This document shows positions 8,400-62,831 of a stretch of DNA of 64,000 bases, one piece after another. How positions within the stretch are numbered: position 1 is the first letter of the stretch; every line of letters starts with the position of its first letter. The notes under the pieces are model-generated. The model had not been told where the DNA came from, made no database searches, and was given only the letters and a program-made list of their open reading frames with translations. This DNA comes from Candidatus Portnoybacteria bacterium RBG_19FT_COMBO_36_7. GTDB taxonomy: Bacteria > Patescibacteriota > Minisyncoccia > Portnoybacterales > GWB1-42-6. The position numbers and the translations under genes are program-made. The stretch spans positions 3,322 to 67,321 of the forward strand of contig MHMW01000018.1 of the NCBI GenBank assembly GCA_001819495.1, read 5' to 3'.

Positions 8400-9599
8400 C
8401 TATTCGTTATTTACGCTTGTGCCAAACACCGAAATATTCAGCCAGACAGGCGGGGTAGTCGTTTCATGGACAAAGTCTATTTCAATATCAATAATGGCAC
8501 TGGGAGTTGAAGTTGCGAAAGGCGTTGTTGCCGGCGAGGTTGTCGCGTTTTCTATCACAGGGTTTTGAACCGGGTCTTGCGTCTCTGGCAAAGAAGCCGC
8601 ATCCACCATCTGCTGGGCGCTTTTTACCATTTCAGTGGCTGTTTTTATAATCGTCAAAGCGCCGGCAAAATCGCCGTTTCTTAAACACTCTAATGCCTGC
8701 TCAATTGCCTTATCGGATTCATCAAGAATAATGGTTGCATTTATCGGCAATTTATCGGAAATTGCCGAATTGCTTACTGTTTCCGAAAGAATATTAGCTA
8801 TTTGTCTGGTTTTCTGGATCTTATCGTCAACTTTAGCCGCGATTTCCGTTTCGCTCATCCCTCCTTCACCCTGCATCTGGACCATCATTTCAAGCGCCCT
8901 TATGCTTGTTTTATCGGCTTCTTCAGTAGCTTCGGCTATTTTATCGGTTAAATTGTTCTTCATATCCGGCGATAGTGCCAATTTTGCCTGACTTAGGCTT
9001 TGTTCGGCTGAAGCAGCACTCTCGTCTATCTTTCTGGCTGCTGCAACTACTTTTTTAGCCTCGGTTTTGCTCAATTTGGGCAATTCGTCTTTTGCGCTTA
9101 AAAGATGGCGCTGCAAGTTATTTACTGCCTCTTCAATTTTGGTCTGTTTTTGTTCCATTGATCCTTCAGTGCTAATAATTTTATTCAGCTCGTCAATCCT
9201 GGCTGAAATCATATCGGTCTGAACCTGAGCTTTGCCTTCGGCAGAAGTCGTGGCAAAAAGTCTTGCTTCTTCCAGCGCGATTTTAACTGGAAAAAGCCTG
9301 TCCCCGGGCAAGCTATTTTTGGCTCCGGCAATAACAGCCAGACTGCTGCTGAACATAAAGCCGAAAATAAGAACAAAAGCCGCTACTGGTTTTAATACGG
9401 GGTGGGGATTTCTGATATAGCACCAAATTGAGACAATTGCCGAAGAAAAATTAAATGCCGGAATTGTTTCTTTTTTGCTATTTTTGGCCATTTCAAGCGT
9501 AATTTTCTCACGGCAAAAAATAACCCAATTTTCATCCGGCTTTATCTTTTTTAATTGATTTAAGCGTTCTATTAGATTGTTTTCGCTTATTTCGCTCAT
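8400..9599 (-). CDS. membrane-anchored coiled-coil protein, putative anti-sigma factor (DUF5667-like)
   Basis: It sits immediately downstream of the ECF sigma gene. The start is placed at MSEISENNLIERL (ATG 9599..9597), followed by a single TM helix and a long coiled-coil, A/E/K-rich periplasmic part. The ORF-track extension to 9734 runs through a repeat element from an internal GTG and is rejected. Confidence 0.5.
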   Translation of the reverse strand: MSEISENNLIERLNQLKKIKPDENWVIFCREKITLEMAKNSKKETIPAFNFSSAIVSIWCYIRNPHPVLKPVAAFVLIFGFMFSSSLAVIAGAKNSLPGDRLFPVKIALEEARLFATTSAEGKAQVQTDMISARIDELNKIISTEGSMEQKQTKIEEAVNNLQRHLLSAKDELPKLSKTEAKKVVAAARKIDESAASAEQSLSQAKLALSPDMKNNLTDKIAEATEEADKTSIRALEMMVQMQGEGGMSETEIAAKVDDKIQKTRQIANILSETVSNSAISDKLPINATIILDESDKAIEQALECLRNGDFAGALTIIKTATEMVKSAQQMVDAASLPETQDPVQNPVIENATTSPATTPFATSTPSAIIDIEIDFVHETTTPPVWLNISVFGTSVNNE

Positions 9600-9741
9600 C
9601 CAGGTAGTAGAAATTCGACTTGATTTTTTAATTATTGCCAGCCCCGTAGTAGAATTTTGACAAGAACGTAGCTCCAATCCCGTAATGAAAAGTCGAAATT
9701 TCACTACGGGGCCAGGCAGCAGTCGAATTTTCACTACCTGG
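9600..9741 (-). mobile_element. element copy A: a 20-bp-TIR element (CCAGGTAGTAGAAATTCGAC / GTCGAATTTTCACTACCTGG) carrying a nested second copy at 9642..9711
   Basis: The outer TIRs are at 9600..9619 and 9722..9741 and are flanked by CAT direct repeats. The inner copy (CCCCGTAGTAGAATTTTGAC...GTCGAAATTTCACTACGGGG) is flanked by CCAG direct repeats at 9638..9641 and 9712..9715. The gene-proximal end abuts the ATG of the anti-sigma-like gene. Confidence 0.7.
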
Positions 9742-9790
9742 CATTCTAATAAATATGACGCGAAAACGCCTTTTTTATTACAGTCAAATA

Positions 9791-9833
9791 GACAAGAAAA
9801 GAAAACGGCGGAGCCGATATCGGCCCTGCCGCC
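9791..9833 (-). terminator. rho-independent terminator after the ECF sigma gene
   Basis: Hairpin GGCGGAGCCGATATCGGCCCTGCCGCC (with an inner 12-nt palindrome) is followed on the minus strand by a U-rich tract. Confidence 0.55.
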
Positions 9834-9888
9834 TTAAATATACGATTTTAGCTTCCCCCTCCACACTAAGCTTGATTTGGGGGCAAAA

Positions 9889-10398
9889 TTAAGCCTCTAA
9901 GGCCTCTCTCAGAGCTTTTATAGCTCTTGATAAGGAAGTCCTGACTGTCCCCTCTGATTTACCTAAAATTTGGGCTATTTCCTCTACCTCAAAGTCGTCT
10001 ACATAATACCAGATAATAATCTCCTGATACTCCTCCCTGATAAGACGGAGATATTCCATTATCCGGTCAATTTTTAAATTTTTATCAGTTTTTTCTTCTA
10101 TGCCCGATTCGGCAATGCCCAAATGTTTTTCGGAAACCTCTTCCAAAGTTATCGGCAAATTAGGATTCTTTCGGAAATAATCGGAAATGAGGTTCCGACA
10201 AATTTGGTAAGTCATTGCCGAAAGATTTCCGATAAAATTTCCTTCTTTCAGGTACTGCCAACCTTTTAAGAACGCTTCGGAGGCAAGATCCTGGGCCACT
10301 TCCTGCGAACCAACCCTAAAATAAACATAGCGATATATCTTCGTTATGTTTTCGTCATAAAACTTAAGAAAATTCTGTTCATTTTCGACTAAACTCAT
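9889..10398 (-). CDS. ECF-type RNA polymerase sigma factor (sigma-70 family, regions 2 and 4)
   Basis: 169 aa with a region-2-like segment (YRYVYFRVGSQEVAQDLASEAFLKGW) and a region-4 HTH (IAQILGKSEGTVRTSLSRAIKALR). Confidence 0.8.
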   Translation of the reverse strand: MSLVENEQNFLKFYDENITKIYRYVYFRVGSQEVAQDLASEAFLKGWQYLKEGNFIGNLSAMTYQICRNLISDYFRKNPNLPITLEEVSEKHLGIAESGIEEKTDKNLKIDRIMEYLRLIREEYQEIIIWYYVDDFEVEEIAQILGKSEGTVRTSLSRAIKALREALEA

Positions 10399-17708: not shown

Positions 17709-17849
17709 CCAGGTTAGTAGAAATTCGACTTTAAATTTAACATTGCCTGCTAAAGGTAAAATCTTCAATTATACAATGTGCCAAATCGTGAGTTTCTTTT
17801 TGGTTCATTCCGTTAAACGGAATGAACCTGTCTAATTTTCACTACCTGG
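17709..17849 (-). mobile_element. element copy B: a 141-bp variant with the same 20-bp TIRs and a different 101-bp interior
   Basis: TIRs CCAGGTTAGTAGAAATTCGAC and GTCTAATTTTCACTACCTGG are flanked by CATA direct repeats at 17705..17708 and 17850..17853. The interior holds a 12-bp-stem hairpin (17802..17828) and a TATAAT hexamer facing iscU. The element abuts the iscU ATG. Confidence 0.65.
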
Positions 17850-24343: not shown

Positions 24344-24410
24344 CCGGGTAGTAGAAATTCGACAATTACTAGTATCGCTGCCGGGCAGCAGTCGAATTTT
24401 CACTACCCGG
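24344..24410 (-). mobile_element. element copy C: a 67-bp basic unit
   Basis: TIRs CCGGGTAGTAGAAATTCGAC and GTCGAATTTTCACTACCCGG differ from the other copies by a compensatory A/G-T/C change that keeps the pairing. They are flanked by CATA at 24340..24343 and 24411..24414. The left repeat holds the GH1 ATG. Confidence 0.7.
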
Positions 24411-35503: not shown

Positions 35504-35926
35504 CTATCGGAAGAAAAACTTCCACCACTTTGAAAAATTAGATTCCATTTTTTTGACTGCCGAGGCCGGCAAAATATCTTTATTTTCCTCTTTTTGCGGC
35601 TGTGAATTTTGAGTAGCTAACGAATCTTTAAGCGGCTCGATTATCACCACTTCCTCCCCCGGTTTTTTCATATTTAATTTTTCCCTCGCTTCTTTTTCCA
35701 AAAAACTCTGACTGTCCAGATAATCTATCATTTCCGATATCTGCTGGTTAGATCTTTCCGCATTGCCAATCTGGGCTTTCAAATTATCGATTTCTTTGTT
35801 AATTTTATATTTCCTGTAATAGACATTGACCACGCTTAAAACCAGCCAAATAAAACCGAGCAATAGAAAAAACAGCGTTATCCGCGAACTTAATATTTTT
35901 TTTATTTTTGCGCCTTGCTCTGCCAT
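35504..35926 (-). CDS. FtsB/DivIC-like septum formation initiator (single TM plus coiled coil)
   Basis: 140 aa with an N-terminal TM helix (FFLLLGFIWLVLSVV), followed by a coiled coil with an EIDNLKAQ heptad pattern. Confidence 0.55.
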   Translation of the reverse strand: MAEQGAKIKKILSSRITLFFLLLGFIWLVLSVVNVYYRKYKINKEIDNLKAQIGNAERSNQQISEMIDYLDSQSFLEKEAREKLNMKKPGEEVVIIEPLKDSLATQNSQPQKEENKDILPASAVKKMESNFSKWWKFFFR

Positions 35927-35952
35927 AAAAATATTGATATACTCAAAATATG

Positions 35953-36020
35953 CCAGGTAGTGAAAATTCGACTGCTGCCCGGCAACAAATCCTAAATTAT
36001 GTCGAATTTCTACTACCTGG
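35953..36020 (+). mobile_element. element copy D: a 68-bp basic unit in inverse orientation
   Basis: TIRs CCAGGTAGTGAAAATTCGAC and GTCGAATTTCTACTACCTGG are flanked by TATG direct repeats at 35949..35952 and 36021..36024. The interior (TGCTGCCCGGCAACAAATCC...) is homologous to copy C. The gene-proximal end abuts the ATG of a small plus-strand ORF. Confidence 0.7.
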
Positions 36021-36021
36021 T

Positions 36022-36120
36022 ATGAAAAAGGGACAAATTTTTAAGATTGTTTGGACGCTTGTCATTGTTTTAATTGTCTTGAGCATGGTAATTCTTTTAA
36101 TCGCACCAATTTTTTATTAG
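36022..36120 (+). CDS. putative 32-aa single-TM micropeptide (MKKGQIFKIVWTLVIVLIVLSMVILLIAPIFY)
   Basis: Its ATG is in the same position relative to the element as the starts of three bona fide genes. It has a hydrophobic helix and is followed by hairpin AAATCGCGCGAGCGATTTTTT. Confidence 0.3.
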   Translation: MKKGQIFKIVWTLVIVLIVLSMVILLIAPIFY

Positions 36121-42643: not shown

Positions 42644-42967
42644 TTACCTTGGAGGATCATAAATACCACCAGCGTGCTCCATTTCCCGCCTTATTTGATC
42701 AATTACCGGCACGGGTTTCAAATATTTTTGCTTTTTCCTTGGGCGCCTCGGTTTATTGTACTTGGCCGCCAGCTTATGGGATTTGTAACCCCATAAATAC
42801 TGGTTTAAGTCATTAACCTCTTTTTTAATTCTCACTAATCTTTTTGATGTCGGCAGAAGCTTTGGTATATCCATGGTTCTGGCCAAATAAACTTGCTTCC
42901 GTTTCCTTTCCAGAAATCTCAATATTTCATCAAATTTTTTAATGTCTCTCTCTAGTTTAATTTTCAT
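42644..42967 (-). CDS. hypothetical basic protein
   Basis: 107 aa, Lys/Arg-rich, with a strong SD (AAAGGAGGGTAAAAATG). Confidence 0.5.
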   Translation of the reverse strand: MKIKLERDIKKFDEILRFLERKRKQVYLARTMDIPKLLPTSKRLVRIKKEVNDLNQYLWGYKSHKLAAKYNKPRRPRKKQKYLKPVPVIDQIRREMEHAGGIYDPPR

Positions 42968-50506: not shown

Positions 50507-50880
50507 ATCCAAGCAAGCTGGGTAATTGCCCTGCACTTTTAATAAAGGTCCAGGGAGGAAAGTCCGAACTCCATCGTTCACTAAAAAGTGAAGGTAAAAA
50601 AGTAGCGGCTAACCGCCGTCCATCGTAAGATGCGAGGTGCGAACAGAGACGCCTGAAACCGAAAGGAATCGGGTATCCTTAATGGATAATTCTTAATGGC
50701 AACATTAAGACTGAAACGGCCAAATCCTTACTGGGAGCAAGATCAAACCTATGAGGCGACAAGCTTGATCTCATAGAGAAAAGTAGATCGCCAGAGCCCT
50801 TGAGCAATCAAAGGCCAAGACAGATAATTATCGCCCCGCAATTGCGGGGTACAGAATTCGGCTTATAGGCTTGCTTGGAT
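50507..50880 (+). ncRNA. rnpB: RNase P RNA (bacterial type A)
   Basis: The P1 helix CCAAGCAAGC/GCTTGCTTGG closes the molecule. Conserved GGAGGAAAGTCCGAACTCC and ACAGAATTCGGCTTATAG (P4 strands) are present. It has its own terminator. Confidence 0.85.
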
Positions 50881-50887
50881 AAATAAA

Positions 50888-50918
50888 AATCCGCTTCTAA
50901 AAAGCGGATTTTTATTTA
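50888..50918 (+). terminator. rho-independent terminator of rnpB
   Basis: Hairpin AATCCGCTTCTAAAAAGCGGATT is followed by TTTATTT. Confidence 0.75.
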
Positions 50919-50941
50919 TCTGAGTTATTGCCAAAACGTTA

Positions 50942-53579: not shown

Positions 53580-53665
53580 ATAAGTTCAAAATGTAAATCT
53601 CAAAATGAAAACTTAAAATTATTTAAATCCCGCGGGGCGGGATACCTAAATTTTACATTTTTAAA

Positions 53666-54832
53666 CTAATTAAGGGCTTCTATTCCCGGCAATTTATCTC
53701 CTGCCAGAAATTCCAGCATGGCACCTCCCCCCGTGCTAACATGCGAAAAATTATCAATTAGACCGAATTTTTCAACAAAACAAGTCGTTTCACCCCCTCC
53801 GATAATCGAAAAACAGGTAGGGCAATTTGAAATCGAATGAGCCATTGCTTCAGTTCCGTGGCTAAACTTATCAACTTCAAAATATCCCATCGGACCGTTC
53901 CAGATAACCATTTTCGAAGCCCGAATCACCGAATCAAAAACCTTTTCAGTTTCCGGCCCGATATCCAGAATTAGTTCGCCCTCGCCGGTTCTGCCAACCG
54001 GATCGATTTTAATTTCGGCTTGGCCGGTCTTGTCTGCACTCGCCACCACATCAACAGGAATATGCAATTTAGTATCTGTCAGCTTTAATTTTTTTAAATC
54101 CGGAATTACTTCTTCTTCTATTAAAGACTTTCCAACGGCAATTCCCTGAGCGTGAAGAACGGTATTGGCCAGCGCTCCCCCAAGAATTATATGGTCTGCC
54201 TTTTTTAAATATTCCTCAATCAGCTTCATCTTGGTTGAAATTTTTGCGCCGCCGATGACGACTGTCAGGGGCCGCTCCGGATTTTCCAAAACCTTTGAAA
54301 GAGCCTCAAATTCTTTTTGTAAAAGCAACCCTGCAAATGACGGTAAATATCTTGTTACGCTGACAATTGAAGCATGGACTCTGTGCGAAGCGCCGAATGC
54401 ATCATTGACATAGACTTCTGCGAGTCCTGATAATTTTTTGGCGAAATCATCGCTATTTGCTTCTTCTTCGGGATGGAATCGTAAATTTTCCAGCAATAAA
54501 ATTTCATCGTTTTTCAGCTGATTGACTAATTTTTCTACTTCCGGACCGATACAATCCGGGGCCATTTTTATCTCTATGCCAAGCAGTTCACCCAGTCTTT
54601 TCTGCACCGGTGACAACCGCATTTCTCCAACCACTTTTCCTTCGGGCCGGGCGAAATGCGAGGACAAAATAATCTTTGTTTTCTGTTCCAATAAATATTT
54701 TATCGTCGGGAGGCTCGCCCGAATCCTATAATCATCCAGAATTTTGCCGCTGTCATCAATCGTGATATTGAAATCATTCCTAACCAGAACTTTTTTACCT
54801 GCTAAATTGCCTGCTTCGCTAATTGTTCTCAT
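53666..54832 (-). CDS. pgk: phosphoglycerate kinase
   Basis: It has RNDFNITIDD and GGGA-type motifs, and the full length is colinear with Pgk. Confidence 0.9.
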   Translation of the reverse strand: MRTISEAGNLAGKKVLVRNDFNITIDDSGKILDDYRIRASLPTIKYLLEQKTKIILSSHFARPEGKVVGEMRLSPVQKRLGELLGIEIKMAPDCIGPEVEKLVNQLKNDEILLLENLRFHPEEEANSDDFAKKLSGLAEVYVNDAFGASHRVHASIVSVTRYLPSFAGLLLQKEFEALSKVLENPERPLTVVIGGAKISTKMKLIEEYLKKADHIILGGALANTVLHAQGIAVGKSLIEEEVIPDLKKLKLTDTKLHIPVDVVASADKTGQAEIKIDPVGRTGEGELILDIGPETEKVFDSVIRASKMVIWNGPMGYFEVDKFSHGTEAMAHSISNCPTCFSIIGGGETTCFVEKFGLIDNFSHVSTGGGAMLEFLAGDKLPGIEALN

Positions 54833-62643: not shown

Positions 62644-62707
62644 AATTGTCTAAATTTATGAACGGAGCGCATTGCGTAATAAAATAAATTTAGCTACAAC
62701 AATGAGC

Positions 62708-62773
62708 ACCGAGCACATAATTTATTCTTTGTGCTCTGAGTATATCTGATGAAGAATAAATTATGTGCTCGGT
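62708..62773. repeat. 22-bp perfect inverted repeat (ACCGAGCACATAATTTATTCTT / AAGAATAAATTATGTGCTCGGT) with a 22-nt loop in the rplR-rpsE spacer
   Basis: It sits within a 188-bp intergenic region of an otherwise tightly packed ribosomal operon. Extra GAGCAC/GTGCTC motifs allow an alternative fold. Confidence 0.7.
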
Positions 62774-62831
62774 AAAGGTTTTGTTACAGAAAACTGTTCG
62801 TCTTTTCGACTCCAGATTTCTGACAAAGCCC

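Follow-up and report, generated by a model that had tools for sequence, protein, structure and literature searches.

Does the repeat that touches the start codon of an anti-sigma-like gene in Candidatus Portnoybacteria bacterium RBG_19FT_COMBO_36_7 consist of one mobile element inserted into another of its own kind? The repeat, called copy A here, occupies positions 9600-9741 of a 64,000-nucleotide stretch of contig MHMW01000018.1 (the window, meaning the whole stretch that was analyzed). Genomes of Patescibacteria (the candidate phyla radiation, CPR) are tiny and are usually viewed as poor in mobile DNA. The analysis indicates that copy A is very probably a nested pair of MITEs (miniature transposable elements with inverted repeats), made by insertion of one element into the internal loop of the other with duplication of 4 bp.

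Copy A consists of two complete elements

As read from the sequence, the 142 bp of copy A are the sum of a 68-bp outer element, a 70-bp inner element and a 4-bp duplication. The outer element is split into 9600-9641 and 9716-9741, with the inner element (9642-9711) between the two parts. Each has its own inverted repeats, which are CCAGGTAGTAGAAATTCGAC (9600-9619) and GTCGAATTTTCACTACCTGG (9722-9741) in the outer element, and CCCCGTAGTAGAATTTTGAC (9642-9661) and GTCGAAATTTCACTACGGGG (9692-9711) in the inner one. The parts are listed below; the orthologue is the simple copy at the same place in a sister species, and gene sense is the minus strand.

9597..9599, minus strand: downstream copy of the outer duplication, ATG with one base lost; it is the start codon of the anti-sigma-like gene
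9600..9619, minus strand: gene-proximal inverted repeat of the outer element; gene-sense 3' arm GTCGAATTTCTACTAC plus terminal CTGG, predicted to pair with 9722-9741
9620..9637, minus strand: A/T-rich interior loop of the outer element, the sole outer part that has diverged from the orthologue
9638..9641, no strand: first copy of the 4-bp target duplication made by the inner insertion; CCAG (plus strand), CTGG in gene sense
9642..9711, minus strand: inner 70-bp element, oriented like the outer one, with inverted repeats at 9642-9661 and 9692-9711; 41.7 bits with the covariance model of the family
9712..9715, no strand: target-site duplication of the inner insertion, copy 2; CCAG
9716..9721, minus strand: conserved TGCTGC (gene sense) of the outer element; 5' strand of the small internal hairpin P2, also part of an alternative 5' hairpin
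9722..9741, minus strand: distal inverted repeat of the outer element; gene-sense 5' arm, CCAG plus GTAGTGAAAATTCGAC
9742..9745, minus strand: upstream copy of the target duplication of the outer element, AATG in gene sense; it holds the first ATG at 9744-9742

When the inner unit and one CCAG were taken out, a 68-bp unit remained that could be aligned end to end with copies C and D, two simple copies elsewhere in the window, and this alignment included the internal TGCTGCC-N-GGCA motif. Alignment to C and D delimited the outer and inner units as in the original prediction, whose decomposition into 68 + 70 + 4 bp with CCAG at 9638..9641 and 9712..9715 was correct to the base.

The inner unit lies exactly in the loop of the internal hairpin of the outer element. 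The hallmarks of its subfamily are CCCC...GGGG termini, AAATTT arms and an interior with TACGGG. The outer element of copy A is flanked by a duplication of CATT (AATG in gene sense) and not of CATA; in the window this duplication reads AATG...ATG, with one base lost, compared to AATG...AATG in the orthologue.

An orthologous site without the inner element

A two-arm pattern scan of one-genome-per-species contigs yielded 50 loci in about 33 metagenome-assembled genomes (MAGs). Locus L047 (Ca. Portnoybacteria CG08_land_8_20_14_0_20_40_83) and the JGI metagenome contigs L051 and L052 were found to be syntenic with window positions 6.4-15.6 kb, with nucleotide identities of 68-79% over the aligned segments and of 76-79% for the long ones; the flanking genes are 72-79% identical, and CG08 matches the window at about 76% here, a divergence of about 24%. 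Their order is sigma gene, conserved hairpin, AATG, 66-bp simple copy, AATG and anti-sigma gene. The internal site of this simple copy reads TGCTGC-CTGG-CAGCA, with CTGG present once, and thus represents the empty site for the inner unit. CTGG, the 4-mer that is duplicated in copy A, was also single in 24 of the 24 simple copies that were aligned.

Elements of the inner subfamily were found at the equivalent internal position and in equal orientation at other loci, with CGGG flanks in L013 and L043 and CTGG flanks in L018 and L008. Because the flanks of the inner unit follow the 4-mer of the host loop, CCAG is a target duplication that lies outside the consensus of either element; the CGGG flanks in L013 and L043 speak directly against CCAG being part of the element. 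The nested insertion with its own 4-bp duplication, as first proposed from the window alone, is supported by both the empty orthologous site and the variable flanks elsewhere.

In the proposed course of events, the outer 68-bp element would have landed on the (A)ATG of the anti-sigma-like gene; the simplest timing is before this lineage and Ca. Portnoybacteria CG08 separated. The apical loop of its small internal hairpin would later have taken up a 70-bp element from a sister subfamily, in the same orientation and with duplication of 4 bp of the target (CCAG; CTGG in gene sense).

The inner insertion is later than the split from the sister species, with flanking genes that are now 72-75% identical. 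Two independent ENA assemblies with an identical sigma protein carry an equal composite with 1-2 single-nucleotide polymorphisms, and the inner unit is 79-86% identical to the inner-type copies in L018, L008 and L013. Copy A had been taken as direct evidence of recent mobility; the mobility holds, but the recency finds no support, given the composites in two more assemblies of the same species and the divergence of the inner unit from its kin. A metagenome scan for a population variant lacking the inner copy returned the sister species only, and both same-species contigs that extend across the repeat carry the composite. A third contig with an identical sigma protein, L053 (Logan SRR4030043), ends inside the repeat, exactly at ...GTAGTGAAAATTCGACTGCTGCC, which indicates that these repeats break assemblies where copies diverge.

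Nesting was also observed in a more elaborate form. In L008 (930-1130; Ca. Portnoybacteria CG08) a triple composite is located at a start codon, and its outer element has one insertion in the 5' arm (AAAA duplication) and a second in the internal loop (CTGG duplication). Nesting of the AAAA type recurs at about six loci of the L008 genome.

Copy A belongs to a family of mobile elements

The hosts of the family are nearly all Patescibacteria, from many classes. Statistics were calculated for 49 unique copies from the approximately 33 MAGs, and relatedness among copies was ignored in the covariation statistics. Unit lengths range from 56 to 141 bp, whereas the composite has 142 bp. No transposase open reading frame (ORF) was found inside the elements, and the ORFs that are present are accidental read-throughs. 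The 4-bp flanks are identical in 37 of the 49 copies (shuffle mean 9.9, maximum 19). The duplications have a fixed length of 4 bp and comprise at least 15 different 4-mers, among them TATG, CATG, AATG, TTGA, TCAA, CAAG, CGTG, TGTG, TTTG, AAAA, CTGG and CGGG; the earlier statement that the target is not strictly CATA was therefore right. An element present in L023 is absent at the orthologous site of the window near 49.3 kb. Based on size, inverted repeats, duplications and dispersed copies with presence/absence differences, the family is defined as a MITE with a 4-bp target duplication.

The inverted repeats are 20 nt long with a near-invariant 16-nt core. CC termini occur in 42-45 of the 49 copies. 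The terminal 4-mers vary (CCAG/CTGG, CCCG/CGGG, CCCC/GGGG, CCGG/CCGG and TCAG/CTGA) yet stay complementary, with pairing in 188 of 196 cells compared to a shuffle mean of 140 and none of 5000 shuffles reaching the observed value. One arm position shows a double change from A-T to T-A (39:10) with zero mixed cases, and a pair of mismatches in the arms, G.T plus A.C, is invariant. The internal 4-mer tracks the 3' terminal 4-mer (0 of 5000 shuffles).

The elements would be moved in trans by a transposase that recognizes the 16-nt arm core (GTAGTGAAAWTTCGAC, GTAGTRRAAWTTYGAC) and cuts with a 4-bp stagger. No transposase, including the Y1 families, is among the 25 listed of the 97 Pfam families matched by proteins of the window, and no distant arm pairs were present in the related loci that were fetched.

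Several further loci deserve mention. L001 and L027 are orthologues from different MAGs, as are L012 and L037; they sit at non-ATG positions, some 22 nt upstream of a gene, and within each pair the interior hairpins differ by compensatory changes, for example ACGAAAT/ATTTCGT versus ACGAAGT/ACTTCGT. L035, from a MAG labelled Ca. Humimicrobiaceae (Actinomycetota), has two copies, one of them at the start codon of EF-G; either the family reaches beyond the CPR or this contig is mis-binned. Several further loci were labelled 'Gammaproteobacteria' or 'Saccharibacteria' by automated binning.

Most free copies occupy start codons

For 29 of 43 non-nested copies, NATG or its complement is found on both sides and touches the ATG of a gene. 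The orientation is strongly biased, with 26 copies in sense and 3 in antisense (binomial ∼1.5e-5, two-sided), and in 24 of 25 cases the ATG is preceded by T or C. An ORF that begins at the downstream ATG has at least 42 amino acids or runs off the contig in 23 of 26 cases. Genes starting at the adjoining ATG encode IscU, GH1, UvrB, EF-G, UvrD, alanine racemase, LigT and ABC ATPases. The first Pfam domain begins within the first 10 residues of IscU, GH1, EF-G, UvrD, alanine racemase and LigT, and within residues 11-26 of UvrB and the ABC ATPases; the downstream ORFs are real genes with the adjoining ATG as their start. In many cases an upstream gene of the same operon ends 4-12 nt before the copy. 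In contrast to the start-codon copies, those at TTGA/TCAA sites show no orientation bias, and four of them coincide with -35-like hexamers that are regenerated by the duplication. These copies (L044, L045, L036 and L048) sit on TTGACA or TTGAAA-N16/17-TAGAAT, and the duplication restores the hexamer beside the -10 box. The Rfam scan placed no non-coding RNA gene in overlap with the non-ATG insertion sites.

Other accounts of the start-codon position were considered and rejected. Leaderless mRNAs would be expected to have a -10 box at a set distance from the first ATG, but no preferred spacing was seen in 25 upstream regions, and the many copies located 4-12 nt after an upstream stop codon also oppose this idea. 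An in-frame N-terminal extension is not the rule, as the spacing of the two ATGs follows no fixed frame and the upstream reading frame ends at varying points. Of 25 copies that have ATG on either side, 8 keep the frame, and a stop codon interrupts it in 4 of these. When the peptide encoded by the element was searched against a database, only 3 proteins were identified, among them S20 and L21 fusions. A promoter inside the element was likewise discarded; simple consensus scans, made around copies A and C only, gave no more matches than shuffled sequences, with one marginal match on the plus (antisense) strand overlapping the end of copy C.

At L021 and L033, two different subfamilies (CCCC/AAATTT and CCGG/AAAATT) occupy the start codon of seemingly one small Cys-rich protein (MEKQCIVCGKKSIMA / MRKCLNCGKGSIMAG) in two MAGs, which suggests independent insertions at the same gene; neither protein has a Pfam match. 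The gene starts of the window are mostly preceded by A/T-rich sequence with no Shine-Dalgarno motif, and GGAGG is present at a few (e.g., near 42967 and 49482).

Predicted RNA folds at start-codon copies

The sense RNA of a simple copy is predicted to fold into a 20-bp stem with a small internal hairpin. Flanks of the type UAUG...UAUG add four pairs that would bury both AUGs, and the predicted unpaired probability of the AUG at copy C is 0.01-0.23. Composite A is predicted to form one rod of -63 kcal/mol (z = -8.3). Among 24 start-codon copies, 96% of the cells are paired in the main fold of the simple copy; 7 pairs are doubly changed, and the covariation score is 0.170 compared to 0.093 in shuffles (relatedness ignored). 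An alternative helix, formed by the 5' end with the internal TGCTGC-NNNN and mutually exclusive with the main fold, is 95% paired. G-U pairs dominate at three of its positions, which implies that it forms in sense-strand RNA only. Until the 3' arm has been transcribed, the predicted fold of minimum energy is this 5' hairpin (-13 to -20 kcal/mol), and a path search placed 15-20 kcal/mol between it and the final fold. The mean predicted stability of the 5' hairpin is -12.7 kcal/mol at start-codon copies (n = 26) and -3.8 kcal/mol elsewhere (n = 14; p = 5.6e-7). Since the inner unit lies exactly in the loop of the internal hairpin, both predicted outer folds survive in copy A, and this preservation may explain why insertions into the loop are tolerated.

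These predictions suggest that RNA folding lets the family be tolerated at translation starts, or even exploited there. Elements with TGCTGC-NNNN would land on YATG start codons, where the 4-bp duplication regenerates the codon, and would survive there in sense orientation through folding of the transcript. The nascent RNA would first form the 5' hairpin from its 5' end and the internal motif, leaving the AUG of the gene free. Only later would this metastable hairpin refold to the full stem, a 20-24-bp helix beside or over the AUG that abuts or sequesters it and is perhaps cut by RNase III. In such a model the three-way covariation of the 5' terminal, internal and 3' terminal 4-mers would be the signature of a two-state RNA. 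A 'start-codon MITE' in this full sense, a mobile translational-control module kept in sense orientation only by two-state RNA folding, is a tentative proposal and rather doubtful. If true, it would place dozens of housekeeping genes of Patescibacteria (EF-G, UvrB, IscU, ribosomal proteins) under a shared, transposon-delivered kinetic switch.

Alternative explanations of copy A

Several observations weigh against transposition of one MITE into another, or against the RNA role that was added to it. Terminal nucleotides that vary while complementarity is kept are unusual for inverted repeats of the DDE type. An autonomous partner or transposase was searched for in the window, in about 360 kb of related loci and in viral contigs, and none was found. 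The claims at the RNA level rest on predicted folds and on covariation statistics uncorrected for relatedness. Near-identical composites are present at two different loci, L013 and L043. Finally, the outer copy is 91% identical between the orthologues, compared to 72-75% for the flanks. Its arms and internal hairpin are essentially unchanged between the species and only the A/T-rich loop has diverged. This conservation could mean constraint or selection, homogenization (gene conversion) among copies, or independent hot-spot insertions.

The alternative that survives best, although it is unlikely, is that an existing composite elsewhere in the genome converted a simple outer copy via the shared arms, by homologous recombination or gene conversion. 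Composites appear to move as units, as the near-identical L013 and L043 lie at two loci of one other MAG, and the inner copy could therefore have come by conversion from another composite. The sister genome has composites of equal architecture (L018 and L008), and the identity of the orthologous outer arms despite ∼25% divergence of the flanks fits ongoing homogenization among copies. However, the A/T-rich loop of the outer element of copy A still resembles the loop of the orthologue and not those of L018 or L008, and neither the arm-core count nor the covariance model revealed a second composite within the 64-kb window. The duplicated 4-mer does not discriminate between transposition and conversion, because the local internal 4-mer would be matched either way.

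It is less probable still that the elements are not mobile at all and represent a conserved cis-regulatory RNA hairpin at translation starts, with the repeated ATGs as part of the motif. The 26:3 sense bias, the compensatory changes in the stems, the conservation of the arms above the flanks between orthologues and the dependence of the alternative helix on G-U pairs, by which it exists in sense RNA only, would all be expected of such a hairpin. On the other hand, at least 15 sequences are represented among the directly repeated flanking 4-mers, some of them at sites remote from any start codon or within other copies, presence and absence differ between related genomes, the adjoining genes are unrelated housekeeping genes, and no Rfam family matches the elements.

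Growth of a long subfamily variant by internal duplication and divergence can be dismissed as most improbable: long variants do exist (copy B of the window with 141 bp; a copy in L029 with a 101-nt interior) and each element repeats its own 3' end in degenerate form as its internal motif, so that internal duplication happens in the family. However, the inverted repeats of the inner unit of copy A are complete (20 nt), its CCCC/GGGG termini are subfamily-specific, its arms carry a compensating AAATTT/AAATTC variant, and its 4-bp flanking repeats are perfect. What is missing at the orthologous site is precisely this unit together with one repeat, and copy B has no second pair of arms.

Insertion of one MITE into the internal loop of another thus remains the best explanation of copy A. 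Mobility and a role of the RNA are compatible, and the latter would be an addition to this explanation.

Genes around copy A

On the minus strand the order is sigma gene, hairpin with T-run, about 50 nt, ATG (9744-9742), composite, and the ATG (9599-9597) of the anti-sigma-like gene. The orthologous anti-sigma-like protein starts at the equivalent place. Window genes are almost all on one strand.

8400..9599, minus strand: anti-sigma-like gene, 399 amino acids, weak DUF5667 match; its ATG touches the composite
9793..9833, minus strand: terminator-like hairpin followed by a T-run, separating sigma gene and element, kept in the orthologue with compensatory stem changes
9889..10398, minus strand: extracytoplasmic function (ECF)-type sigma factor gene, 169 amino acids, Sigma70_r2 and Sigma70_r4_2

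The stem of the hairpin at 9793-9833 is preserved by compensatory changes between GGCGGCAGGGCC... in the window and GGCGGTTAGGCC... in L051 (8266-8298). The hairpin is absent from the result of a simple terminator scan because its stem is bulged. In the original prediction the nested copy was thought to uncouple the sigma and anti-sigma genes transcriptionally. This part found no support: hairpin and outer copy already separate both genes in the sister species, and the nested insertion can therefore not be held responsible for an uncoupling.

The sequence TGTAAT-N16-CGTC (9757-9782, minus strand), which ends about 10 nt ahead of the first ATG, is conserved in the orthologue from Portnoybacteria. 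It resembles a promoter of the ECF-sigma type. If this promoter is real, the anti-sigma gene would have its own ECF-dependent promoter and a very short leader.

Other copies in the window

The 16-nt arm core occurs 10 times in the window, compared to 0.47 expected by chance and with none of 100 shuffles reaching 10. All ten cores lie within copies A (4 arms), B, C and D, so that the window holds five units at four loci. Scanned with a covariance model built from 24 family members, the window gave matches at copies C and D and at the inner unit of A, and nothing else convincing; weak matches at 50872-50926, 53594-53669 and 62705-62776 were rejected as unrelated hairpins.

17709..17849, minus strand: copy B, 141-bp long subfamily variant, adjoins the ATG of an IscU/NifU gene, TATG on both sides
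24344..24410, minus strand: copy C, 67 bp, adjoins the ATG of a GH1 glycosidase gene, TATG on both sides, 91 bits
35953..36020, plus strand: copy D, 68 bp, TATG on both sides, followed by a 32-amino-acid ORF, 26 nt from a divergent DivIC-like gene, 90 bits

All four loci adjoin an ATG start codon (IscU, GH1, the 32-amino-acid ORF and the anti-sigma-like gene) and have a second (T/A)ATG before it. Copy B is not a nested pair, and its interior is shared with a copy in L029. In this long subfamily (17709-17849 in the window; 2795-2943 and 7700-7900 in L029) a 12-13-bp hairpin follows directly after the 5' arm; its sequence is wholly different between copies yet paired, and a conserved AAAAAGAAnTCACnATTTGGCA block comes next. 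In the region of copy D (35924-36024), the ATG of the DivIC-like gene is at 35926 and the 32-amino-acid ORF on the other side is hydrophobic. The promoter of the DivIC-like gene must lie within copy D or beyond it. An unrelated perfect 22-bp inverted repeat with a 22-nt loop was seen in an intergenic position at 62709-62774 (ACCGAGCACATAATTTATTCTT ... AAGAATAAATTATGTGCTCGGT) and may belong to another hairpin repeat family.

Comparison with known systems

The family is common to many CPR classes, has moved since closely related species split and inserts into its own copies at a defined loop. It lands mainly on start codons, in one orientation and beside essential genes, and no such behavior was found in Rfam or the searchable literature. 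If the two-state RNA is real, it would amount to a transposon-spread tuning of translation in organisms in which Shine-Dalgarno sites are mostly missing. On the practical side, short-read assemblies break at the elements, which may also mislead the calling of start codons and can serve as strain-level presence/absence markers.

With Rfam 15, nothing scored above the gathering threshold in window positions 9400-9950 or in ten related loci, tRNAs elsewhere aside, and a full-text literature search returned no description of CPR MITEs or start-codon MITEs. At the level of the family, sense start-codon occupancy, three-way covariation and the alternative 5' hairpin appear new in so far as none of them was found in Rfam or the literature search.

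Elements of the IS1380/piggyBac type have ends beginning with CC and 4-bp target duplications (ISfinder family features). Both traits are shared with the present family, which makes this type a lead to a candidate parent by features only; no transposase with such ends was found.

With REP/REPIN elements, which are mobilized by RAYT (Y1/HUH) transposases, and with IS200/IS605 palindromes the family shares a hairpin-centred organization, structure over sequence and GTAG at the base of the palindrome, and as in elements derived from these systems short internal 'guide-like' motifs covary with the ends. Those families lack target duplications and insert beside a fixed short sequence, whereas here 4-bp duplications of many sequences are the rule, and no RAYT or TnpA gene was seen among the window families listed. 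Elements derived from IS200/IS605 have subterminal hairpins and insert 3' of a fixed tetra- or pentanucleotide; membership in this group is further opposed by the terminal position of the repeats and by a 4-mer that is shared by both sides, including the CTGG or CGGG of a host loop.

Cyanobacterial small dispersed repeats, reportedly described by Elhai and colleagues in 2008, are said to nest in one another and in hairpins. The present family would resemble them in inserting into its own kind and into hairpin loops with preservation of secondary structure, and would differ from them in size, sequence and hosts.

The proposed action resembles two kinetically controlled translation starts, the leader of the phage MS2 maturation gene and hok mRNA with its metastable 5' hairpins: a long-range helix can sequester the start codon, and on the nascent RNA a local 5' hairpin comes first. 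MS2 and hok are fixed leaders of single genes, whereas the repeats described here are mobile and their behavior is predicted only.

Correia and ERIC elements duplicate TA. In a comparison of features, with the consensus sequences left unaligned, the present elements fall outside both groups, as they duplicate 4 bp and only rarely a central TA alone. More broadly, hairpin MITEs such as Correia (Neisseria), ERIC/IRU (enterobacteria) and RUP/BOX (pneumococci) are small, multicopy elements with inverted repeats and short duplications that form RNA stem-loops and are co-transcribed with genes (PMC3184786). The family is like them in being small, non-coding and multicopy, with inverted repeats and long RNA stem-loops within transcription units. 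It has no sequence similarity to them and differs in its variable 4-bp duplication with YATG preference, its covarying termini and its Patescibacteria hosts; two thirds of its free copies touch a start codon, unlike those of Correia, ERIC or RUP/BOX.

Rickettsia palindromic elements, as summarized in PMC3184786 (Ogata 2000, cited there), are inserted in frame within genes and translated. They are likewise palindromic mini-elements of reduced genomes that survive at or inside coding sequence. Here, in contrast, the frame between the two ATGs is arbitrary and the gene proper begins after the element.

Neisseria REP2 and the Borrelia upstream repeats are located directly upstream of genes, have internal stem-loops and carry an ATG at the gene end (PMC3184786). 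These repeats bring their own promoter, ribosome-binding site and ATG and have no target duplication, whereas in the present family the ATG is duplicated target DNA. Together with the co-transcribed hairpin MITEs, Neisseria REP2 and the Borrelia upstream repeats are the nearest described cases.

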